Of a stretch of 64,000 nt of DNA, positions 2,650 through 34,535 are shown piece by piece. Where the stretch lies: assembly GCF_000027125.1 (NCBI RefSeq), contig NC_017626.1, one strand, 5' to 3'. Under the pieces are notes generated by a model. It had not been told where the DNA came from. It saw only the letters and a program-made list of their open reading frames with translations, and ran no database searches. This DNA is from Escherichia coli 042. GTDB taxonomy: Bacteria; Pseudomonadota; Gammaproteobacteria; Enterobacterales; Enterobacteriaceae. The position numbers were made by a program, and so were the translations under genes. Positions within the stretch are counted from its first letter, which is position 1. Each line of letters starts with the position of its first letter.

Positions 2650-3859
<1,210 letters not shown>

Positions 3860-3863
<4 letters not shown>

Positions 3864-4510
3864 GCCTCTGCTCCGGGTTTGATCAGCATCAGACCACAGC
3901 CGAACGCGCGGCTTTTGCCATACCCCTGGCTCAGACGTTGCAGAAATAACCCAGGATCGGTGACCGTAAGCATCCCCGTATAATCCACGCTACAGAACTG
4001 GATCAGTTGCCGGGAGTTTTCCCGCCGCAGTTGCTGTTGTCGGTAGGCATCGACCGAGGTATCCAGTAGTGTAAAACCGCTTCTTTCCCCCTGCGCTGCC
4101 AGCCAGTCCAGCGCCGCCTGTTGTTGATGCAACCAGACATCACGCCCTTCCGCCTGCCCCCTCACCTGCCGTTTCGCCTCTATCAGCAGATCGTGGCGCT
4201 TACCCGCTTTACAGACTGTTGGATTCGCCCGCAGGTTGAAACAAAGGGATTGTCCGGTACGCAGCTCCGGCGCAAATGACCGGCATTCGATGGTGAACGT
4301 ATCACTTTCCGCCGGGCGTTCCTGCGACAGGACAAAAAAGCGAAACGCGCCCTGGAGTTCTTCCCGACGATAAAGAAATTGCCTTTCTTTGCCACCCGGG
4401 AAAAGATCCCACAGCCACTGATGCATCACATATTCACCGCGATCCACCAGATGCAGCAACTGCGCAGGCGAAAGCTGGCCGGTATGTAAGGTTATTCTTG
4501 AGAGGTACAT
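3860..4510 (-). CDS. casE: Cas6e / CasE (Cse3) crRNA endoribonuclease
   Basis: Track ORF 3860..4648; I place the start at the internal Met (MYLSRITLH..., about 4510), which is preceded by AGGAGG. C-terminal glycine-rich segment GCGLMLIK typical of Cas6e. Confidence 0.85.
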
Positions 4511-5248: not shown

Positions 5249-6304
5249 TTACGCGCAGATAAAGTCCAGCACGTCCTTCATGCTTCCCTGTTTGTTCATC
5301 ACGTCAAAACTTGTGTAATCGGTCTTCTGTTCGTAAACCTTATTCATGTTTTCGCGAAGCGTCGTAATACGCTGCACCGCTTCATCTAACTGCCCGGTGC
5401 CGTTAATGGGTTCATAAAAAGCCGCCGCCAGAGAGCGCGGTTGTTCGATACCTTTTTCTGCCATCGCCCAGGAGGCGTAGGCACGACTGGCAAAGCTGTT
5501 TTGTTTACCGGTTGGGGAAACTTTAAACGCGGCTTCCGTAAAGGCGCGCAGGGTCTGATTAGCCAACGCTTCGTCTCCGCCGAGGTTTTCTACCAACAGA
5601 TCTTTATCAATGCAGATATAGGTGTAGAAAAGTGCTGAACCGAATCCGGTTTCACCAAGATGCCCGGCACCGGCATCTTCAGAAGCCTGGCGCAAATCAT
5701 CAACGGCGGTGAAAAAATCATCTTCGACAATCGTTTCACTGACACCAAACGCATGCGCAACCTGGCAGGCGGCTTCAACATTAAACTCGGGTTTATTCGC
5801 CAGCATACGACCAAACATAGCGATATCTACCGCCATGCGATCTTTACGTAACAAAGCGAGATCTTCCTCTTTTGGCGCGCGCTTTTCTTCGGCCAGTTGA
5901 TGGGCCAGCGCTTTTACGGCGTCAAATTCTGCCGGGCTGATATGGACTAGCTGTTCAGTTTCGGCGTTAGTGAGCGGATCTTTTGGTTTTTTGTCGTTTT
6001 TAGCTTTCCCAAGATAATCCGCAATTTTTGCCGCCCATTCGATGGCTTTTTTCTCTTCGATGCCTTTCTCAATCAGGATAGTTGCCGCCTCACGCGCAAT
6101 ACGCCCACTGCGAATACCAATATGGCCCGCCAGTGCCTGTTCAAAATGTGCAGAAGTGCGCCACGCACGTTTCAGACTTTGTGAGGAAACGCGCAGACGC
6201 GTTGCTCCACCCAGTACCACAGTTTTTGGCGCACCGGTGTCATCACGGTTAAGGTTGGCAGCAGGGTAAGCGGTTAACAAATGAAGCTGAATAAATGTCG
6301 TCAT
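5249..6304 (-). CDS. casC: Cas7e / CasC (Cascade backbone)
   Basis: 351 aa, MTTFIQLHLLTAYPAANLNRDDTG...SSQSLKRAWR is the Cas7e signature; operon position. Confidence 0.92.
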   Translation of the reverse strand: MTTFIQLHLLTAYPAANLNRDDTGAPKTVVLGGATRLRVSSQSLKRAWRTSAHFEQALAGHIGIRSGRIAREAATILIEKGIEEKKAIEWAAKIADYLGKAKNDKKPKDPLTNAETEQLVHISPAEFDAVKALAHQLAEEKRAPKEEDLALLRKDRMAVDIAMFGRMLANKPEFNVEAACQVAHAFGVSETIVEDDFFTAVDDLRQASEDAGAGHLGETGFGSALFYTYICIDKDLLVENLGGDEALANQTLRAFTEAAFKVSPTGKQNSFASRAYASWAMAEKGIEQPRSLAAAFYEPINGTGQLDEAVQRITTLRENMNKVYEQKTDYTSFDVMNKQGSMKDVLDFICA

Positions 6305-6318
6305 GAGATAGTCCTTTA

Positions 6319-6855
6319 TTAATTTTGTTCGTTATCGGCGTCGCCAGCCTGGTAATATTCCAGCGCCCAGCGGATACGGATAAATTCTGTTGGCCGCTGC
6401 TGGCGGCGGTGATGATTGAGCAGATCGTCGCTCTCCTGGCACCAGCGGAAAATATCGTCTGCCAAAGAGATAAGATTGACGGAACCATTTAATAATTTGA
6501 CCGCGCGACGTAACTGGCGCAGTAATTCATCCGGCGTTTTGACTGCCGACAGGCGAGTAAAACGCCCCTCAGACATTACCGCCGCCAACTGCGCGGCAAA
6601 AAGCTGCCGTTCATCAATGGCTTTTACATTGGCGGCAACGGCGGCAACCAGCGCCAGTGCGGTAAAACGCCACTCCTGTGATTCAATTTTCCACAACGTG
6701 TGGGTCTGCATCAGCAGAGAACGAAACCCTTCTGACAGACAAACATCATTAACCGTTGTGCTACGCCGCAGACTGGCACGATTGCCTCGTTTTTCCTGCA
6801 ACTCTTCGTGCCATTTACGCAGCGTGGCTTTGTGCTCCTCTTTTACAATACTCAT
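6319..6855 (-). CDS. casB: Cse2 / CasB (Cascade small subunit)
   Basis: 178-aa ORF between casA and casC with ATGA-type overlap to casA; assignment mainly by operon position and size, sequence divergent from my memory of K-12 CasB. Confidence 0.75.
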   Translation of the reverse strand: MSIVKEEHKATLRKWHEELQEKRGNRASLRRSTTVNDVCLSEGFRSLLMQTHTLWKIESQEWRFTALALVAAVAANVKAIDERQLFAAQLAAVMSEGRFTRLSAVKTPDELLRQLRRAVKLLNGSVNLISLADDIFRWCQESDDLLNHHRRQQRPTEFIRIRWALEYYQAGDADNEQN

Positions 6856-8414
6856 TCAGCAGCCTCCTGCTTTTTCTCCCTGGCGGCTTTAGCACTTTGC
6901 TTCTCCGCCGATGTTGTAAAATATTTCTTGCGCGCGGTCATGACGCGTTTCAAATCAACGGGCTCATAAGGATTAGTGAATACACGCTCGTCAAAATCCT
7001 GACGCGCGAATAACCAAATTTCCTTTTGCCATTTGCCGAGTAATTCATCCGCATCCTGACCTTCTTCAATTTGGCGCACTAACCTCAGGAAGCGATGCTG
7101 AGTTTTGTTCCAGAAGTCGATATCCACAAAACTAAAATCACCCCGAGCACCTTTTGGATCGGAGAACCAGGCTTCTTTCAATGCACTCCGTAACAGACTT
7201 AGAATCCGTGAAGCCGTTTGCGCAACCAGCCGCAGCTTCGGTATCTGGCCTTCTTTTTTATTGAGCAGCAGCGGGAAATGGTGTTCGTACCAACAACGGG
7301 CTTTCATGTTGTCAAAATCATAACCAAATCCCCACAGGCCCACTTTTGTCTGCTTCAGACTGCTGGCATTAAAGAGTTTCACCACCAGCGCGGGAAGTTC
7401 CGTATTGTTTTCTGACTTACCCGTTTCGATAAGACCTAACCAGTCGCGCCAGATTAAACCGCCCGGTTGTGGTTTAACGGAGTAAAACTCACCGCCCTCT
7501 TTAAGTGGTACACGGTAAGGCGTTAAGGGATGCTGCCACATGGCATAATTCGCACCATAATTTTTGGTCGTCATCAGGCTCAGGAGCGAGTCATTCTGCT
7601 CGCCGCAAATATCGCAGTTGCCGACTGTCGTGGTATTAAAATCAATACGAATACGCCGCGGCATTCCCCAGTACGCCTGGAGTTTATTGACCTGATCATG
7701 GGTTACCACCGCACCGGCCAGTTCGCTGGTACGCGTCGGGCCAAGCCAGGGGAAAATCAGATCGTCAAATTTTTTGGGTAGCGGTAAGTCGGCTTCATCC
7801 TGCGGCATCACATTGAGCCACAGTTTGCGCCACAAGGGTGTTTGTTGATTGCCCTGATATTCCTGTAATTCAATCAGAGTGGTCATCGGCCCACCGCCGC
7901 GTAAACCGGTGCGATAGCCTTTGCCGCCTGACGGCGCATTTAACTGTAGGGAGAACAGAGCTAACGCAGAACAATGTGGGCACAGGTATTCCGTTACACC
8001 ACGCTTGATAAAGTGGTCTTTATTAAACTTCGTTGTTTGAGCGCCGGGAATCTCAGGCAGTAGCGAAGCGACCGGAATTTTATCTCCGGTGAGCGCCTCG
8101 AAATCCTGCATAAATGAAGGGGAATCTGGGCCAAACTGGAAAGCATGTTCTAAAGATAGCAATGCTTCCCGTAGCTTTTCAGCTTCCAGTCCGTCTTCCC
8201 AGATATCATCCCAACGACGATGATCTTTTGGCGCGAAGCTGGTTTGTAGTAGCCCCAGCAAAAACTGCCACGCCGCTCCCTGGAGATCTGCCCGCGGCGC
8301 AGCGATATCGACAACATTTTCATCCGCCAGATCGACTGGCGCCAGTTTGCCTGTTGTTCCGTCTTTAAAACGAACGGGCAACCACGGGGTTGTCAGAAGT
8401 GAAAACGAGTTCAT
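6852..8414 (-). CDS. casA: Cse1 / CasA (Cascade large subunit)
   Basis: Track ORF 6852..8483; I favour the start at MNSFSLLTTPWLPVRF (about 8414) with GAGAGG 6 nt upstream; the 8420 and 8483 starts remain possible. Size about 520 aa fits the Cse1 family. Confidence 0.8.
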   Translation of the reverse strand: MNSFSLLTTPWLPVRFKDGTTGKLAPVDLADENVVDIAAPRADLQGAAWQFLLGLLQTSFAPKDHRRWDDIWEDGLEAEKLREALLSLEHAFQFGPDSPSFMQDFEALTGDKIPVASLLPEIPGAQTTKFNKDHFIKRGVTEYLCPHCSALALFSLQLNAPSGGKGYRTGLRGGGPMTTLIELQEYQGNQQTPLWRKLWLNVMPQDEADLPLPKKFDDLIFPWLGPTRTSELAGAVVTHDQVNKLQAYWGMPRRIRIDFNTTTVGNCDICGEQNDSLLSLMTTKNYGANYAMWQHPLTPYRVPLKEGGEFYSVKPQPGGLIWRDWLGLIETGKSENNTELPALVVKLFNASSLKQTKVGLWGFGYDFDNMKARCWYEHHFPLLLNKKEGQIPKLRLVAQTASRILSLLRSALKEAWFSDPKGARGDFSFVDIDFWNKTQHRFLRLVRQIEEGQDADELLGKWQKEIWLFARQDFDERVFTNPYEPVDLKRVMTARKKYFTTSAEKQSAKAAREKKQEAAE

Positions 8415-26141: not shown

Positions 26142-27620
26142 ATGTCGAAAAAATACATCATAGGGATTGATGGCGGAAGTCAGAGCACAAAAGTGGTGAT
26201 GTATGATCTGGAAGGTAATGTGGTTTGCGAAGGCAAAGACTTATTGCAGCCGATGCACACGCCAGATGCCGATACCGCAGAACATCCTGACGACGATTTA
26301 TGGGCATCATTATGTTTTGCCGGTCACGATTTGATGAGTCAGTTTGCCGGGAATAAAGAAGATATTGTCGGTATTGGTCTGGGCTCCATCCGTTGCTGCC
26401 GTGCGTTATTGAAAGCCGATGGCACGCCAGCTGCGCCGTTGATTAGCTGGCAGGATGCACGCGTTACACGCCCTTACGAACATACGAATCCTGACGTGGC
26501 ATATGTCACCTCTTTTTCAGGTTATCTGACGCATCGCTTAACCGGCGAGTTTAAAGACAATATCGCCAACTATTTTGGTCAGTGGCCGGTGGATTATAAG
26601 ACCTGGGCATGGAGTGAAGATGCCGCAGTCATGGAGAAGTTTAATATCCCCCGTCATATGCTGTTTGATGTGCAAATGCCTGGCACCGTCCTCGGACATA
26701 TCACACCACAAGCCGCACTGGCGACACATTTCCCGGCAGGACTGCCGGTTGTTTGTACCACCAGTGATAAACCGGTAGAAGCTCTGGGGGCCGGATTACT
26801 GGATAATGAAACTGCGGTAATTTCTCTTGGCACTTACATCGCATTGATGATGAACGGCAAAGCACTGCCGAAAGATCCGGTGGCGTACTGGCCAATTATG
26901 TCTTCTATTCCGCAAACATTGCTGTATGAAGGTTACGGTATCCGCAAAGGCATGTGGACAGTGAGCTGGCTGCGCGACATGTTAGGCGAGTCGTTAATTC
27001 AGGATGCCAAAGCACAGGATCTTTCACCGGAAGATTTACTCAACAAGAAAGCGTCTTGTGTGCCGCCTGGCTGTAATGGTCTGATGACGGTGCTGGACTG
27101 GCTGACCAATCCGTGGGAACCGTACAAACGCGGGATTATGATCGGCTTTGATTCCAGCATGGATTACGCATGGATATATCGTTCGATACTGGAAAGCGTG
27201 GCGCTGACGCTGAAGAACAATTACGACAATATGTGTAATGAAATGAATCACTTTGCAAAGCATGTGATCATTACTGGCGGTGGTTCGAACAGCGATCTGT
27301 TTATGCAGATTTTTGCCGACGTGTTCAACCTTCCGGCACGACGTAACGCCATTAATGGTTGTGCAAGTCTGGGGGCAGCGATTAATACGGCGGTAGGTCT
27401 GGGGCTATACCCGGATTACGCAACGGCTGTCGACAAAATGGTTCGCATGAAAGATATCTTTATGCCTGTTGAGAGCAACGCCAAACGCTACGACGCGATG
27501 AATAAAGGCATTTTCAAAGACCTAACCAAACACACTGATGTGATCCTGAAAAAATCGTATGAAGTGATGCATGGTGAGCTGGGGAATGAAGATTCGATCC
27601 AGAGCTGGTCGAATGCGTAA
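26142..27620 (+). CDS. ygcE: FGGY-family carbohydrate kinase
   Basis: 492 aa; N-terminal GIDGGSQSTK sugar-kinase motif and C-terminal ITGGGSNSDLFMQIFADVF. Confidence 0.88.
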   Translation: MSKKYIIGIDGGSQSTKVVMYDLEGNVVCEGKDLLQPMHTPDADTAEHPDDDLWASLCFAGHDLMSQFAGNKEDIVGIGLGSIRCCRALLKADGTPAAPLISWQDARVTRPYEHTNPDVAYVTSFSGYLTHRLTGEFKDNIANYFGQWPVDYKTWAWSEDAAVMEKFNIPRHMLFDVQMPGTVLGHITPQAALATHFPAGLPVVCTTSDKPVEALGAGLLDNETAVISLGTYIALMMNGKALPKDPVAYWPIMSSIPQTLLYEGYGIRKGMWTVSWLRDMLGESLIQDAKAQDLSPEDLLNKKASCVPPGCNGLMTVLDWLTNPWEPYKRGIMIGFDSSMDYAWIYRSILESVALTLKNNYDNMCNEMNHFAKHVIITGGGSNSDLFMQIFADVFNLPARRNAINGCASLGAAINTAVGLGLYPDYATAVDKMVRMKDIFMPVESNAKRYDAMNKGIFKDLTKHTDVILKKSYEVMHGELGNEDSIQSWSNA

Positions 27621-27667
27621 GTGAGGAAGACCGGGCGGGAAACTGCCCGGCCTGAACATACCTGAAT

Positions 27668-27804
27668 GGTTATCCCCGCTGACGCGGGGAACATAAGTTC
27701 GACAACTTAAAAAATGATAACAAGTCCGGTTTATCCCCGCTGATGCAGGGAACATAATAAAAACTTTAACTAGTTCGGTTTATCCCTGTTTTTACAAGGA
27801 ATAT
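27668..27804 (-). CRISPR. degenerate CRISPR remnant (CRISPR2.2-like): about 3 decayed repeats
   Basis: Decayed repeat copies at about 27668 (GGTTATCCCCGCTGACGCGGGGAACAT), 27727 (CGGTTTATCCCCGCTGATGCAGGGAACAT) and 27776 (CGGTTTATCCCTGTTTTTACAAGGAATAT); spacing 59 then 49 bp. Confidence 0.7.
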
Positions 27805-28257
27805 TAACTACACTCGATGTCTTTAGAATAAAAGACAATACGAATCGCACTTTATCAATTTTCACTTAAAGTATGAACTGGATATCTTTATTCATAAGAA
27901 CTATTCATCAACAGCGTATAGAGGCGATTATGTAAAATCACTCATTAGCCTCAAAACAAAGACAAATTTCCAGATTTATTACTTAATCAATGAATAATAA
28001 GCTTAAAAAATACACTGTTATTCTAAAGAAAAAATTAACAGGCATTAATTAATATTAAAAAAATAATATATTAAAATTTCTTAACGATTTAAGAATCATA
28101 CAAATAACACTTTGATTAAATTTAATTTTTTGTATCGATAATTGTGAACTTCTCTGGCATGGAGAACTATTTTGAACATGAGGTGTTACGTGGATATGTT
28201 GCTTATTACAAGTACTGCTAATATAAAAACTTGAGAAAGAGATAACGGGTTATATGG

Positions 28258-28408
28258 TGGTTTATCCCCGCTGGCGCGGGGAACTCTTGGCATAGGCGCT
28301 ATAGCGGCGCTCTGTGTCCGGTTTATCCCCGCTGACGTGGGGAACTCAAAGACAAATTTCTTTGTTCCTATGGCCAGACCGGTTTATCCCCGCTGGCGCG
28401 GGGAACTC
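28258..28408 (-). CRISPR. CRISPR array (CRISPR2.3-like): 3 repeats, 2 spacers
   Basis: Repeats at about 28258, 28319, 28380 with 61-bp period, consensus CGGTTTATCCCCGCTGGCGCGGGGAACTC; the middle repeat carries GACGTGGGG. Confidence 0.9.
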
Positions 28409-28500
28409 TCTAAACATAACCTATTATTAATTAATGATTTTTTAAGCCAGTCACAATCTACCAACTTTACAGTATCACACAAACAACACATCCATTATGT
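28409..28500 (-). promoter_or_regulatory. CRISPR leader for the 28258-28408 array
   Basis: AT-rich, abuts the terminal repeat, shares AAACATAAC and CAATCTACCAAC with the 2554-2649 leader. Confidence 0.65.
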
Positions 28501-28746
28501 TAAAGAGCATTTAATCCATTGATTAAAAAGATAAATATTTGAAATAACTCTATTCAAACTAAAATCTACCAAATTTCACCGCAATAATTTTCACTCCAAC
28601 GAAAAATTAACGCCATAAAATTTGTAGAGAATGATAATGATTAGTTCAGGATGGGCAAAATGGAGGTTTTTCAGAGGCGACAAAGAATATAAATGAGTAG
28701 AAGTCTTTACAGGTTCCACCCATTTATAACGCTTATAAATGTTTAA

Positions 28747-29418
28747 TCAGGCAATATTTAAATATTTATGCGTTTGCATCGACAAACGCCAGTTGCGCGC
28801 AATGCACGTATCGATACATAAACGAGTAGCATCATCCTTTTGGCTAATCGGCTGCAGTGCAATGACTCGCGGTTTATCATCGGTCAGTGTTGCCAGTAGT
28901 TCATCCAGTGCTTCAATATCACGTACGCGTCCCACTGGATGCTTGATTTCGTTGGCTCGCTCCAGTGCCTGTGACAACACTTCATAGCCGCCGCGCATGT
29001 TCAGCTTTGGCGATACGGTAACCCAGGTATTCGGTGTGCAGCGTACCTCATGAGTACCACTGGTTTCGATCTGGCAGCTAAAACCGTTCTTTTCGAGCAG
29101 GTCAGTCAGTGGCAGCAAATCATGAATGCAAGGCTCACCACCCGTAATCACCACATGCCGCGCGGTGTATCCCTGGCGACCAATGACAGCCAGCAAGTCT
29201 TCACTGCTCGCCGCCCCCCACTTATCACTCTCTTTGGTCTTCGCCAGAATGCTGAAAAGGGAGACTTCCCGATCCTCAAGCTTTTCCCAGGTGTGTTTGG
29301 TGTCGCACCAGGCACAGCCAACCGGGCATCCCTGTAAACGAATAAAAATGGCGGGGACGCCGGTAAAGTAACCCTCACCTTGCAGGGTCTGGAACATCTC
29401 GTTAATCGGGTACTGCAT
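28747..29418 (-). CDS. queE: 7-carboxy-7-deazaguanine synthase (radical SAM)
   Basis: 223 aa, MQYPINEMFQTLQGEGYFTGVPAIFIRLQGCPVGCAWCDTKHTWEK (radical-SAM Cys cluster). Confidence 0.93.
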   Translation of the reverse strand: MQYPINEMFQTLQGEGYFTGVPAIFIRLQGCPVGCAWCDTKHTWEKLEDREVSLFSILAKTKESDKWGAASSEDLLAVIGRQGYTARHVVITGGEPCIHDLLPLTDLLEKNGFSCQIETSGTHEVRCTPNTWVTVSPKLNMRGGYEVLSQALERANEIKHPVGRVRDIEALDELLATLTDDKPRVIALQPISQKDDATRLCIDTCIARNWRLSMQTHKYLNIA

Positions 29419-29590
29419 AGCATTCTCTGTGAAGTGGATAATTGTTAATTATTGCAGATCCTGCCACAACAATCATGTCTTATTAACATTCTGTTACAGG
29501 CAGGTTTAAGGCAAAAAGTGGATGAGATCATAAAGAATAAAATGAAGCGGCGTATTATGTTTTAAGGAATTAATTAAAAGGGACATAGAC

Positions 29591-30193
29591 ATGCTCAGGA
29601 TATTCATCGTAATTATATTTATTGCCAATTTATCAGGCTGTGGATATAACGATATTCAAACCTATGATGAGCAGGTTAACGCCTCCTGGTCTGAGGTATT
29701 GAATCAATATCAACGTCGCGCCGATCTTATTCCTAATCTTGTCGCCAGTATTAAAGGTTATTCCAGCCATGAACAAGAGGTACTGGAAGCCGTAACATTG
29801 GCACGTAGCCAGGCTAATCGCGCCAGTAGCGATCTTCAGCAAGCTCCGGGAGATGCGCAAAAATTACAAGCCTGGCAACAAGCCCAGGCGCAGGTGTCTC
29901 GCACTCTCGGTCAGTTAACGATAATTAGTGAACGTTACCCTGATTTAAAAGCTCAGGAACTCTATCAAAATTTAATGGTACAGCTCGAAGGAAGTGAAAA
30001 TAGAATTGCCGTTGCGCGAGGAAGATATATTAAAGCCATTGAACAATATAATGTCACTATCCGCAAATTCCCCGCTGTATTAACCGCAAAGGTCATGGAT
30101 TACACACCGAAGAAAAATTATTTGCCGGATGACGTCGCAGCTGTGAGTAAAGCACCAATAATAGATTTTAGCCAGAATGCTAATGCGCATTAA
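29591..30193 (+). CDS. LemA-family protein, probable lipoprotein / membrane-anchored
   Basis: 200 aa; N-terminal hydrophobic segment with lipobox-like LSGC; LemA-like core (ASWSEVLNQYQRRADLIPNLVASIKGY...ERYPDLKA...QLEGSENRIAVARGRY...YN). AAGGGA SD. Confidence 0.85.
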   Translation: MLRIFIVIIFIANLSGCGYNDIQTYDEQVNASWSEVLNQYQRRADLIPNLVASIKGYSSHEQEVLEAVTLARSQANRASSDLQQAPGDAQKLQAWQQAQAQVSRTLGQLTIISERYPDLKAQELYQNLMVQLEGSENRIAVARGRYIKAIEQYNVTIRKFPAVLTAKVMDYTPKKNYLPDDVAAVSKAPIIDFSQNANAH

Positions 30194-30206
30194 GCGGGGA
30201 AGTTAT

Positions 30207-31100
30207 ATGCGAAATTTTATCTTCCTTATGGCTTTCTTCTGTTCATCTGTGTTTGCCACACAAATTCCAGTACCTGAATCACCCAGGTATGTGAATGACT
30301 TAACCGGCACATTGACAAACAGTGAAGTAAACACCCTGACCAACCAGATTAAAGCCCTGACGCAAAAAAACAACGCACAGTTGGTCGTGTTAGTGGTTGA
30401 AACAACAGGCGATGAAACCATCGAGCAGTACGCAACGCGGGTATTCGATAGCTGGAAACCGGGTGATAAAGACCGCGATGATGGCGTTCTACTGTTAGTC
30501 GCCTGGCAGGATAATACCGTGCGTATTGAAATTGGTTACGGACTGGAAGGTATTATTACGGATGCGCAGTCCGGGAAAATTATTCGCAACAGTATTATTC
30601 CGGCATTTAAAAAAGGCGACCTGGCTGGCGGTTTACAAAAGGGGATCAGCGATATTGAAAGTCGTCTGACGGGGAATAATTTAGCAACGATAACACCGAC
30701 CGATTACCCTTTGCCCTTTAGTGGTTGGTGGGCTTTGTTAGTCTGGGCGATAGTACTGACGTTTATTTCTGCCAGAGGATATGTCAAAACACTGGGACTA
30801 ATTTGCTTCGCAGCTATTGTACTGGCCTTTGTTTTACCTATAGCAGGTTTCAGCGGAAGCTGGGGAGTGCTCGCAACATTACTCTGCTTCGCCACACCGT
30901 TCCTGGCTGTCGCCATCGCTTTTACTCCCTTCGGCAAAAAGGTTCGGGATTCGATGCGTAATACCAACCAGCCATCACGCCATACAAGAAACAATTCTTC
31001 CTCCCACTATTCGTCATCGTCATCCTCTTCATTCGACAATGACAATTTCCGCGGTGGTGGCGGTTCATCTGGTGGCGGTGGCGCTTCCGGGCGCTGGTAA
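30207..31100 (+). CDS. TPM-domain membrane protein (YgcG-like), paralog 1, Gly/Ser-rich C-terminal tail
   Basis: Track ORF 30177..31100; start placed at MRNFIFLMAFFCSSVFA (signal peptide). TPM-like domain (LVVLVVETTGDETIEQYATRVFDSWKPGD...GVLLLVAWQDNTVRIEIGYGLEG), then TM segments, tail ...FRGGGGSSGGGGASGRW. Confidence 0.85.
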   Translation: MRNFIFLMAFFCSSVFATQIPVPESPRYVNDLTGTLTNSEVNTLTNQIKALTQKNNAQLVVLVVETTGDETIEQYATRVFDSWKPGDKDRDDGVLLLVAWQDNTVRIEIGYGLEGIITDAQSGKIIRNSIIPAFKKGDLAGGLQKGISDIESRLTGNNLATITPTDYPLPFSGWWALLVWAIVLTFISARGYVKTLGLICFAAIVLAFVLPIAGFSGSWGVLATLLCFATPFLAVAIAFTPFGKKVRDSMRNTNQPSRHTRNNSSSHYSSSSSSSFDNDNFRGGGGSSGGGGASGRW

Positions 31101-31114
31101 CAAAAGGAATTGAT

Positions 31115-32263
31115 ATGCGTATTTTTCTCTTACTTCTGATGCTATGCGGTTTTCAGGTATTCGCTGAACGATTGCCTTCAGTGACTGACTTAACCGGGAC
31201 ATTAACGACAGAAGAACAAAGTGCTTTAAATCAACAATTACAGACTCTCGAGCAGCAAAACCACTTCCAGGTGGCCGTGTTGGTTACGCCGACCACAGGG
31301 GGCAAAAATATTAAACTTGCAGCCTCGCAGAGCTACGGGTTATATCACTGGAAACCCGTTGGAGAGAAGCGATATGGCGAAGGAATCTTAATTCTCGTCC
31401 TCTGGCCGGAAGGGCTGGCGTCAATGAAGATTGGACATGGACTGGAACAGATGTTGCCGCCGGAACAAGCTGCACAAATTGTTCGTTACCATATGCAGCC
31501 AGAATTCGAAAAAAACAATCTCTTTGCTGGATTAACGGGCGGAATTGAAAGCATCGCACAGTTTACCCATATCAAAGCGAACCTTAGCCCTTTGGATGCT
31601 TTAGCCAATCATCTGTTTGCTAATCCGCAACGTTCGCTGCCATGTCTTGCCTGGACACTGCTGATGATCGTTGCCATCGTTGTCCTCTGGCGATTTGCCA
31701 GCCGCCCAGGGCGTGGCATATGGATGATATCGATGATTACCCCTATGGTCTGGTTTTTCTTCTTTCAGGACGATGTCATCATTCGGCGGGTGTCGATCGT
31801 TTGTTTTAGTTTATTGTTCGCAACAACCTGCTGGCAGCGTCTCGCGGTAGTTTTTAATATGTGCCGCGCATTTCCTATGATGCTGGCCCCCAAAAATAAA
31901 AACACTAAAGTGAAAAAACAAAAGAAGACTCCGCAGGTTCGTGAATCAGGACGAAATTCATTGTTTGTCGTGATGCTGATAATTATTGTGGGATGGTGCC
32001 TGGTGTTCGCCAGTAATAAAGATATTGCATTCATCTCAACAATTATTGGGCTAATTGATCATTTTATCGGCCCAATAACCATTGCTGGCATAGTTCTGCT
32101 GATCATTGTGGCCAAATTTACTGGCAATCTTAAACTGGGGTCAGGAGAAAAAAGCAACAGGAAAACGGGGAATCGTAATGCTCATTCTCGCTCTTCGTCG
32201 AGAAATTCTTTCCGCGGTGGTGGTGGTTCTTCAGGAGGCGGCGGTTCATCCGGACGCTGGTAA
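31115..32263 (+). CDS. TPM-domain-like membrane protein, divergent paralog 2 with extended polytopic region and Lys-rich loop
   Basis: 382 aa; signal peptide, degenerate TPM-like region (VAVLVTPTTGGKNIK...ILILVLWPEGLASMKIGHGLEQ), several hydrophobic helices, loop KNKNTKVKKQKK, tail ...FRGGGGSSGGGGSSGRW. Confidence 0.8.
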   Translation: MRIFLLLLMLCGFQVFAERLPSVTDLTGTLTTEEQSALNQQLQTLEQQNHFQVAVLVTPTTGGKNIKLAASQSYGLYHWKPVGEKRYGEGILILVLWPEGLASMKIGHGLEQMLPPEQAAQIVRYHMQPEFEKNNLFAGLTGGIESIAQFTHIKANLSPLDALANHLFANPQRSLPCLAWTLLMIVAIVVLWRFASRPGRGIWMISMITPMVWFFFFQDDVIIRRVSIVCFSLLFATTCWQRLAVVFNMCRAFPMMLAPKNKNTKVKKQKKTPQVRESGRNSLFVVMLIIIVGWCLVFASNKDIAFISTIIGLIDHFIGPITIAGIVLLIIVAKFTGNLKLGSGEKSNRKTGNRNAHSRSSSRNSFRGGGGSSGGGGSSGRW

Positions 32264-32268
32264 TCATT

Positions 32269-33162
32269 ATGCGCTTAATCTTTTTTCTACTTACTTTATG
32301 GTGCCTTCCTGGGCTTGCCCAGCAAATTGCTGTGCCGGAGCTGCGCCAACAGGTGACCGATATTACTGGTACGTTAAGCACGTCTGAACAACAATCACTG
32401 ACACAACAGCTGCAGGATATCACACAAAAAACACGGGCCCAGGTCGCCGTATTAATAGTGCCATCCACCGGAGACGATACCATTGAACAATATGCAACAC
32501 GCGTTTTTGATAGCTGGAAACTGGGAGATAAGCAGCGAAACGATGGTATTTTACTGCTGGTTGCCTGGGAAGATCATGCTGTCCGTATAGAAGTGGGCTA
32601 CGGGCTGGAAGGGGTGGTTACCGATCTGCAAGCAGCGAAGATTATCCGTAATATATTAATCCCAGCCTTCAAAAGTGATGACTTGATGGGTGGGTTAACA
32701 CTGGCAAGCGAAAATATCGGAGCGCTTCTGTTGAATGGTGAATTACCGGAAGACAGGGGGGATTATTACAGTATCAATCCCCCTATTCCATTATCGCTTG
32801 CTGTAATTATATTGCTGGCGGTACTTTCATATTTTATTGTTTTTACCGATCCGTCGAATTTACCCTGGATAGCACTGACTGGCGGAATTTATGGGATGGT
32901 ATTCCTCTATGTTGCCGAGCCAGGACCATGGACGAATTTAATCGTTGCCTGCGGTATGCTCACGCCTTTTGCTATCGTACCACTGGTTATTTTTTGGCTT
33001 ATCGTTAATAAAAAGCTACGCGCCAAATACAAAAAACTCAGTAAAGAAAGAGCTTCAAGAAAAGGTTCTTCTTCATCCTCTTCCGGTGGCGGCTCAAGTG
33101 GCGGCGGATTTAGCGGCGGGGGCGGTTCTTCTGGCGGTGGCGGCGCGTCCGGTCGCTGGTAA
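32269..33162 (+). CDS. TPM-domain membrane protein (YgcG-like), paralog 3
   Basis: 297 aa; signal peptide, TPM domain close to paralog 1 (AVLIVPSTGDDTIEQYATRVFDSWKLGDKQRNDGILLLVAWEDHAVRIEVGYGLEG), TM helices, tail ...GGGSSGGGFSGGGGSSGGGGASGRW. Possibly the ygcG ortholog; not certain. Confidence 0.85.
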   Translation: MRLIFFLLTLWCLPGLAQQIAVPELRQQVTDITGTLSTSEQQSLTQQLQDITQKTRAQVAVLIVPSTGDDTIEQYATRVFDSWKLGDKQRNDGILLLVAWEDHAVRIEVGYGLEGVVTDLQAAKIIRNILIPAFKSDDLMGGLTLASENIGALLLNGELPEDRGDYYSINPPIPLSLAVIILLAVLSYFIVFTDPSNLPWIALTGGIYGMVFLYVAEPGPWTNLIVACGMLTPFAIVPLVIFWLIVNKKLRAKYKKLSKERASRKGSSSSSSGGGSSGGGFSGGGGSSGGGGASGRW

Positions 33163-33171
33163 CTCAACCAT

Positions 33172-33202
33172 AAAAAATGCCAGCCCGAAGGCTGGCATTT
33201 TT
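33172..33202. terminator. bidirectional rho-independent terminator between the LemA-TPM cluster and eno
   Basis: AAAAAA-TGCCAGCC-CGAA-GGCTGGCA-TTTTT: perfect stem flanked by A-tract and T-tract. Confidence 0.8.
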
Positions 33203-33221
33203 AAATCAGATAAAGTCAGAC

Positions 33222-34535
<1,314 letters not shown>

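Follow-up and report, generated by a model that had tools for sequence, protein, structure and literature searches.

The interval between queE and eno in Escherichia coli 042 holds four intact plus-strand open reading frames (ORFs), one encoding a LemA-family lipoprotein and three encoding proteins with TPM domains (TPM1, TPM2 and TPM3), within the 64,000-nucleotide stretch of contig NC_017626.1 (assembly GCF_000027125.1) that we refer to as the window. Judged by its gene content, this arrangement of one lemA and three TPM genes is an Escherichia lineage-specific variant of a widespread LemA/TPM operon, and sequence comparison identifies it as an ancestral resident of the queE–eno site that has been cut down to yqcG and ygcG in most E. 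coli strains including K-12. An earlier reading of the same DNA from its sequence only had put the locus forward as an under-described system. This is fair insofar as our full-text literature searches returned no functional study of the operon, only expression tables and domain surveys; it is nevertheless no new kind of system, as the pairing of LemA and TPM proteins is widespread and annotations of these genes exist in more than 1,100 complete genomes.

Gene content and domain architecture

Searches against Pfam recovered the domains that had been proposed for all four products. LemA matches PF04011 with an E-value of 2.5e-48 over model positions 1–149 of 149, while TPM1, TPM2 and TPM3 match PF04536 (TPM_phosphatase) with E-values of 1.4e-40, 3.4e-21 and 9.2e-39, respectively, each over approximately 123 of the 125 model positions. 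The co-directional genes are separated by gaps of 13, 14 and 5 nt, the first of which had been given as 14. Starting 10 nt past the end of the operon, the sequence AAAAAATGCCAGCC-CGAA-GGCTGGCATTTTT forms a hairpin with a 13-bp GC-rich stem (−20.3 kcal/mol, z=−5.97), preceded by an A-run and followed by a T-run, in agreement with the bidirectional terminator already noticed by the sequence-only reading. A hairpin scan within the operon detected no internal terminators above chance. The short gaps, the one strong terminal hairpin and the lack of internal ones above chance suggest that the four genes form a single operon.

The LemA protein starts with MLRIFIVIIFIANLSG-C, featuring a lipobox LSG-C17 whose cysteine is invariant in 14 homologues, and its N-terminal lipid anchor is followed by a predicted periplasmic helical-bundle domain. 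This domain matches the LemA domain from Thermotoga maritima (PDB 2ETD) over residues 22–177 with a phmmer E-value of 6.9e-33. In E. coli, the residue following the lipid-modified cysteine directs Lol sorting, which is known as the +2 rule. Because LemA carries glycine at this position, it is probably sorted to the outer membrane.

All three TPM proteins combine a cleavable-looking signal peptide, a TPM domain, transmembrane helices and a Gly-rich tail ending in GGGG[AS]SGRW, and all three are of the YgcG type, hereafter called TPM-A. They share 35–42 % identity with each other, and this identity is distributed unevenly: TPM core and tail are conserved, whereas the membrane modules differ completely. 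TPM1 displays three hydrophobic spans at approximately 175–193, 196–214 and 221–239 as well as a Ser-rich linker and ends in GGGGSSGGGGASGRW, while TPM2 possesses a membrane module of about five helices with a Lys-rich loop and the C-terminus GGGGSSGGGGSSGRW. In the AlphaFold2 model of TPM2, most of the TPM domain reaches a predicted local distance difference test score (pLDDT) of 76–88 and the membrane part is of low confidence (pLDDT 35–65). The model of TPM3 has a mean pLDDT of 81.9 with 89–97 in the TPM domain, which shows the alpha/beta TPM fold, and predicts helices at 175–192, 195–215 and 220–246, followed by a K/R-rich helix, a disordered Gly/Ser tail and the terminal GGGGASGRW. In the alignment of the TPM domains, D31 is invariant, and the invariant residues are mostly structural Gly, Pro and Asp.

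The envelope location that had been assumed for these proteins is borne out by the lipobox, the signal peptides and the hydrophobic spans. From this architecture we infer that the TPM proteins reside in the inner membrane and that LemA and the TPM domains face the periplasm, and the TPM tails are placed in the cytoplasm because of the odd number of transmembrane helices and the basic, K/R-rich segment behind the last one. It is worth mentioning that AlphaFold2 renders GGASGRW, encoded by the last seven codons of TPM3 (33139–33159), as a beta strand with a pLDDT of approximately 84 after 25 disordered residues. The only sheet in this model is that of the TPM domain, which would be periplasmic in TPM3 itself, while the tail would be cytoplasmic.

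To place the operon among its relatives, one genome per species was scanned with LemA peptide patterns. The scan ended at 600 pattern matches, and the 80 loci kept represent a sample of Proteobacteria and no census, and they included neither Salmonella nor Klebsiella; their ORFs were searched with a TPM profile built here, and the 61 loci with at least 2.2 kb downstream of lemA were counted. In 40 of these 61 loci LemA is followed by TPM-A and then by a second type, TPM-B, and in 11 by TPM-A only, while four loci carry two TPM ORFs that were not classed further and five carry no TPM gene. Three TPM-A genes were found at a single locus, that of E. albertii. In agreement with the wide co-occurrence of LemA and TPM genes stated in the sequence-only reading, the arrangement in the window is a lineage-specific variant of a very common operon. 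TPM-A proteins of the sample have a signal peptide, a TPM domain, about three transmembrane helices and a Gly-rich tail, and 54 of the 55 TPM-A proteins adjoining LemA end in the nine residues GGGGASGxW. TPM-B is a protein of approximately 165 aa with neither signal peptide nor transmembrane helix and with the C-terminus NELPDxPVxL, and is presumably cytoplasmic. We take LemA, TPM-A and TPM-B of this canonical operon to be COG1704, COG1512 and COG3762, respectively. An ORF of the TPM-B type is lacking from the operon of the window and from the loci of Escherichia and Klebsiella, which do not represent the canonical triad. For TPM-B elsewhere in E. coli, a tblastn search of a plasmid collection that includes a mislabelled E. 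coli chromosome gave no Escherichia among the organisms listed, which is weak evidence since the list did not cover all matches.

Haplotypes and history of the queE–eno site

The layout of K-12 had been given correctly as yqcG plus ygcG. Homology between K-12 and the window extends, at 94 %, from queE as far as window position 29623, the 33rd nucleotide of lemA, and begins again at 33081, where the Gly-tail of TPM3 is encoded. K-12 yqcG (b4682), with a product of 46 aa, takes in signal-peptide codons of lemA (…IIFI…) without a change of frame, starting from an upstream ATG that in the window precedes TTT TAA (window 29556–29623 compared to 3058–3198 of the K-12 stretch). As yqcG reads the 5’ codons of lemA in frame, it holds a relic of lemA, and K-12 carries the reduced form of the locus. 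The proposal of a reduction in the reference strain is therefore supported for lemA, but ygcG is ruled out as a plain survivor of TPM1, TPM2 or TPM3: K-12 YgcG is only 42–45 % identical to TPM1 and TPM3, and the first 210 nt of its gene match none of the three.

The 3’ two-thirds of K-12 ygcG are also found in approximately 330 genomes with a four-gene locus, where they form the 3’ portion of gene four. This chimeric gene changes from TPM3-like (92–98 %) to K-12-like (95–100 %) sequence at nt 210–240, in a box encoding IEQYATRVFD. A second kind of junction is seen in E. marmotae, where TPM2 is absent and the transition from TPM1 to TPM3 falls inside a 55-nt tail-coding repeat. Each TPM gene of the window ends in a copy of this repeat, and the three copies show 80–84 % identity. 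With one breakpoint in the IEQYATRVFD box and another in the tail repeat, the locus is a mosaic shuffled at two conserved boxes. A recent tandem duplication was ruled out by the identities of only 35–42 % between the paralogues and by the E. albertii orthologue that each of them has; the three TPM genes are thus paralogues as proposed, but old ones and not recent tandem copies.

In the synteny comparison, E. albertii, E. marmotae and Klebsiella proved to have lemA at the same queE–eno site as E. coli. E. albertii has lemA and the same three TPM genes with protein identities of 87 %, 79 % and 92 % for the TPM proteins, E. marmotae has lemA, TPM1 and TPM3, and Klebsiella has lemA and one TPM gene, to which Klebsiella spallanzanii-like genomes add a TPM2-like membrane protein without TPM domain. 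Full-length relatives of TPM2 are confined to Escherichia, and its membrane module gave 12 matches among 1.84 billion representative proteins. Close LemA orthologues of Salmonella, Citrobacter and Enterobacter were not seen among the best 120 clusters. The ratios of non-synonymous to synonymous substitution rates (dN/dS) between E. coli and E. albertii are 0.036 for lemA, 0.14 for TPM1, 0.21 for TPM2 and 0.11 for TPM3 at synonymous divergences (dS) of 0.36–0.79, showing that all four genes are clearly under purifying selection, which is weaker than that on queE and eno.

Two further observations concern the Klebsiella loci. In the K. spallanzanii-like locus, a long array of clustered regularly interspaced short palindromic repeats (CRISPR) of the same repeat type as at the E. 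coli locus lies between the TPM-less TPM2-like gene and eno (approximately 6863–8184 there). One Klebsiella contig carries a gene for a NAD-dependent epimerase/dehydratase (7020–8129 there) between the LemA/TPM genes and eno, which is another sign that the queE–eno interval accepts insertions.

Presence and absence within E. coli were determined by megablast of sub-segments against 5,426 complete genomes, so that the haplotype counts are approximate. Matches were obtained in 1,454 genomes for lemA, 1,104 for TPM2, 1,114 for the 5’ part of TPM3 and 782 for the membrane part proper to TPM3, compared to 3,947 for the 5’ part and 4,290 for the 3’ part of K-12 ygcG; every match lies on the chromosome and occurs once per genome. 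From these counts and the examples inspected, four haplotypes can be deduced: one like the window (~780 genomes), one with lemA, TPM1, TPM2 and the chimeric fourth gene (~330 genomes), one with lemA, a truncated TPM1 and an unrelated ORF of 121 aa (~350 genomes), and the K-12 form yqcG plus ygcG (~3,950 genomes). The four-gene operon is present in about a fifth of E. coli. Alleles of lemA differ by up to approximately 10 % at the nucleotide level, whereas the flanking eno is about 98–99 % identical. In the truncated haplotype, the ORF of 121 aa (3949–4311 of the inspected locus) encodes a hypothetical membrane protein that replaces the end of TPM1 together with TPM2 and TPM3, and no Pfam-style relatives of it were seen here. 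E. coli O157:H7 Sakai (ECs_3634–3636; 5482–7033 of the inspected stretch) has lost the start codon of lemA (MLRIF to TLRIF), and its TPM1 has an in-frame stop after …GVLAT, which is just where homology to TPM1 breaks off in the truncated haplotype.

A mobile element was considered and rejected, since the plasmid-borne relatives of LemA are at most 50 % identical and reside on chromids or megaplasmids of other genera, and the phage matches are distant and mostly from Firmicutes. The sole “plasmid” match to LemA with 95 % identity, PLSDB record NZ_CP141089.1, is a 4.94-Mb E. coli record that contains the lemA locus of the chromosome and evidently represents a chromosome itself.

The features of the locus are collected in the table below. 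Both flanking genes, queE (28747–29418) and eno (33222–34520), are encoded on the minus strand, eno being convergent with the operon. The operon is more AT-rich than its surroundings, as had been remarked, albeit modestly so, with 46.2 % GC compared to 50.5 % in the window; lemA is lowest with 42.8 % and a GC content of 37 % at third codon positions. Window positions 28700–33300 are 100 % identical to E. coli strain Ecol_316, for which RefSeq gives the same four coding sequences. No structured RNA or riboswitch was matched by Rfam at gathering thresholds in 27000–34000. Between ygcE and queE, the window furthermore contains two tiny type I-E CRISPR remnants with the repeat GGTTTATCCCCGCTGGCGCGGGGAAC, one with two to three decayed repeats (27667–27805) and one with three repeats and two spacers (28259–28409), where K-12-type strains have longer arrays.

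Features of the queE–eno interval in the window (positions in nt)
Feature	Position	Strand	Remarks
queE–lemA divergent intergenic region	29419..29590	+	presumed operon promoter and lemA Shine-Dalgarno; homologous to the K-12 queE–yqcG region
lemA, LemA-family lipoprotein, 200 aa	29591..30193	+	Pfam PF04011
TPM1, YgcG-type, 297 aa	30207..31100	+	Pfam PF04536
Tail-coding 55-nt repeat, copy 1 (TPM1 end)	31046..31100	+	
TPM2, divergent YgcG-type, 382 aa	31115..32263	+	Pfam PF04536
Tail-coding 55-nt repeat, copy 2 (TPM2 end)	32209..32263	+	
TPM3, YgcG-type, 297 aa	32269..33162	+	Pfam PF04536
Tail-coding 55-nt repeat, copy 3 (TPM3 end)	33108..33162	+	recorded as holding the right-hand breakpoint relative to the K-12 haplotype, 33081
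Bidirectional intrinsic terminator, common to operon and convergent eno	33173..33202	.	hairpin folding, A-run/T-run

Candidate functions of the operon

A scan for consensus sigma-70 promoters found none in the queE–lemA intergenic region. The homologous queE–yqcG region of K-12 is bound by the sigma-S RNA polymerase holoenzyme according to chromatin immunoprecipitation sequencing and genomic SELEX (systematic evolution of ligands by exponential enrichment) (PMC4447067, PMC5493296). In K-12, phosphorylated PhoP furthermore binds DNA upstream of queE, and deletion of yqcG raises queE expression (PMC4974570); the RefSeq product name of YqcG is ‘cell envelope stress response protein’. By analogy, the operon would be driven by the same stationary-phase and envelope-stress promoter region as K-12 yqcG. 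Expression data on relatives likewise suggest a link to stress: in Flavobacterium columnare, deletion of sppA raises lemA and a TPM gene along with envelope genes (PMC13236525), and ECs_3635, the TPM1 orthologue of Sakai, is up about 2.4-fold under TiO2 stress (PMC11301168).

With about even chances of being right, we read the operon as a module for membrane maintenance or assembly that is linked to stress, faces the periplasm and has three different membrane anchors. The TPM domains would be accessory or assembly factors without catalytic activity, located outside the cytoplasm and bound to complexes embedded in the membrane, LemA would provide a membrane-proximal helical scaffold, and the three TPM paralogues would supply three different membrane anchors or client specificities. 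A non-catalytic role is favoured because of comparative analyses, the structural matches of TPM3 and a model of a LemA-like scaffold. The comparative analyses regard TPM as an accessory factor that is unlikely to be a phosphatase (PMC11237479; bioRxiv 10.1101/2025.01.14.632903), and a further preprint models a LemA-like domain as a scaffold close to the membrane (bioRxiv 10.64898/2026.07.15.738315). Foldseek matches of the TPM3 model include Psb32, TLP18.3, LMTP1 and one subunit of the mycobacterial CIII2CIV2 supercomplex; TPM proteins play such an accessory role in photosystem II as well as in this supercomplex, and the same role has been proposed for them in PspA operons.

Several points weigh against this reading. 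The function of the operon is inferred by analogy, and some TPM domains (BA42, BA41 and TLP18.3; cited in PMC11237479) show phosphatase or ATPase activity in vitro. The evidence for a stress promoter comes from K-12 with its reduced locus. TPM-B, the canonical cytoplasmic partner, is absent here, which leaves the conserved tail without an identified partner. Finally, lemA is missing from approximately 73 % of the complete E. coli genomes with a further ~350 carrying the truncated form, and the lost lemA start and the TPM1 nonsense codon of Sakai indicate that the module is dispensable.

The in-vitro activities lead to another view, in which the TPM domains would hydrolyse phosphorylated substrates in the periplasm as metal-dependent phosphatases or nucleotidases (ATPase/ADPase), with LemA as regulator or anchor; this would also suit the Pfam name TPM_phosphatase. 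The closest structures include BA41, with reported ATPase/ADPase activity, besides BA42 and TLP18.3, for which phosphatase activity was reported; the TPM3 model superimposes on BA41 with a TM-score of 0.92 normalised to the target, a root-mean-square deviation of 1.7 Å and 30 % identity. Additionally, all three paralogues keep D-x4-L-x3-E at the start of the domain, which aligns with Rhom172_1776 (7TBR; E=5.6e-22), a protein with a proposed Mg2+ site, although the literature disagrees on the metal site. Against enzymatic function, the activities reported are weak and inconsistent among family members with ‘no consensus’ on function, both comparative analyses mentioned above judge the domain unlikely to be a phosphatase, the invariant residues are mostly of the structural kind, and the well-studied TPM members are bound accessory subunits. 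We consider catalysis rather improbable on this balance.

It would be just as surprising to us if the module were a dispensable ancestral remnant that is being lost from E. coli and has no important present function. Such decay would fit the share of genomes lacking lemA, the truncated haplotype, both lesions of Sakai and the absence of close Salmonella, Citrobacter and Enterobacter orthologues from the best 120 LemA clusters. However, all four ORFs are intact in the window, dN/dS relative to E. albertii amounts to just 0.04–0.21, the four-gene form persists in approximately 1,100 genomes, always in the same place on the chromosome, and the C-terminal peptide is invariant across Proteobacteria, with the one exception among the 55 TPM-A proteins given above.

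Less likely still is a conflict-driven cassette locus, in which the membrane modules would be under diversifying or balancing selection, for example from phages, colicins or contact-dependent toxins that exploit the modules or are blocked by them. Such selection would account for both the haplotype mosaic and the position next to CRISPR arrays, which flank the locus or, in Klebsiella, lie inside it. E. coli harbours four or more haplotypes with deep divergence, the lemA alleles diverge far more than the neighbouring eno, cassettes were exchanged at the IEQYATRVFD box and the tail repeat, and wholly different membrane modules are combined with a conserved TPM core and tail. On the other hand, the interspecies dN/dS values are low, the proteins are not exposed on the cell surface and have no nuclease, toxin or nucleoside triphosphatase domain, their close relatives are chromosomal and not on E. 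coli plasmids or phages, and the adjacency to CRISPR-2 is a fixed feature of the E. coli chromosome. A known anti-phage defence system was ruled out, as none of the four proteins matched any of 5,027 PADLOC defence models (PADLOC-DB v2, E≤0.01).

A more specific proposal, which we hold to be improbable as a whole, joins two ideas: that GGGGASGxW is a beta-strand docking ligand for TPM domains, and that Escherichia rebuilt the operon as three shuffled TPM-A cassettes whose haplotypes are kept by selection. In canonical operons, the peptide may tether cytoplasmic TPM-B to membrane-spanning TPM-A, and the resulting device of LemA, TPM-A and TPM-B may couple a periplasmic event to a cytoplasmic partner. 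In Escherichia, the membrane modules may have been shuffled at the two conserved recombination boxes, with several haplotypes maintained by selection.

Of the bacterial envelope proteins without an assigned function, LemA and TPM proteins belong to the most widespread, and the value of the locus lies in making this old question testable rather than in a new kind of system. At least four haplotypes (full, chimeric, truncated and K-12 remnant) occupy one fixed site and can be swapped in tractable E. coli, which amounts to a natural experiment. The small K-12 protein YqcG is explained as a lemA signal-peptide relic read from a new start codon, the canonical module is defined as a three-part one with predicted domains on both sides of the inner membrane, and the conserved C-terminal peptide GGGGASGxW presents a concrete experimental target. 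We found no prior description of the variant with three TPM-A and no TPM-B, of the haplotype mosaic and its breakpoints, of the origin of yqcG or of the conserved terminal peptide.

Comparison with known LemA and TPM systems

The closest solved TPM structures to the TPM domains of the window are BA41 and BA42 from Bizionia argentinensis and Rhom172_1776, all of which were studied as isolated soluble domains in in-vitro phosphatase or ATPase assays. Psb32, TLP18.3 and LMTP1, which serve in photosystem II assembly and repair, share the TPM fold, the extracytoplasmic (lumenal) side and a C-terminal transmembrane anchor with the window proteins, but have neither a LemA partner nor the GGGGASGxW tail, and the window locus has no photosystem. 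The TPM proteins stay below the Psb32 equivalog cut-off (NCBIfam NF047379), with 37.8 and 33.6 compared to 160 bits. The TPM protein YdjH of Bacillus subtilis, encoded in the pspA-like ydjFGHI operon, has been proposed to act in a chaperone-like manner in membrane stress systems (PMC11237479); its partners are PspA, a band-7 protein and YdjG instead of LemA, and the window locus has no pspA-like gene.

On the LemA side, the magnetosome protein MamQ resembles the window LemA in its fold and membrane-proximal position and is implicated in membrane remodelling. MamQ is, however, anchored by a transmembrane helix and encoded in the magnetosome island, whereas the window LemA is a lipoprotein encoded in a TPM operon, and it scores below the MamQ equivalog cut-off (NCBIfam NF040966) with 93.8 compared to 250 bits.

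Among whole loci, yqcG–ygcG of K-12 (b4682, b2778) shares the site, promoter region, terminator and TPM/tail architecture with the window operon and is homologous to it over 80 nt at the 3’ end of ygcG and over 33 nt at the 5’ end of lemA; it differs in the deletion of lemA except for the 5’ end and in having one TPM gene compared to three. The canonical operon resembles the window in its gene order, with the LemA lipoprotein first, a gene of the YgcG type directly next and short gaps in between, while Escherichia departs from it by carrying three TPM-A-type genes with unrelated membrane modules.

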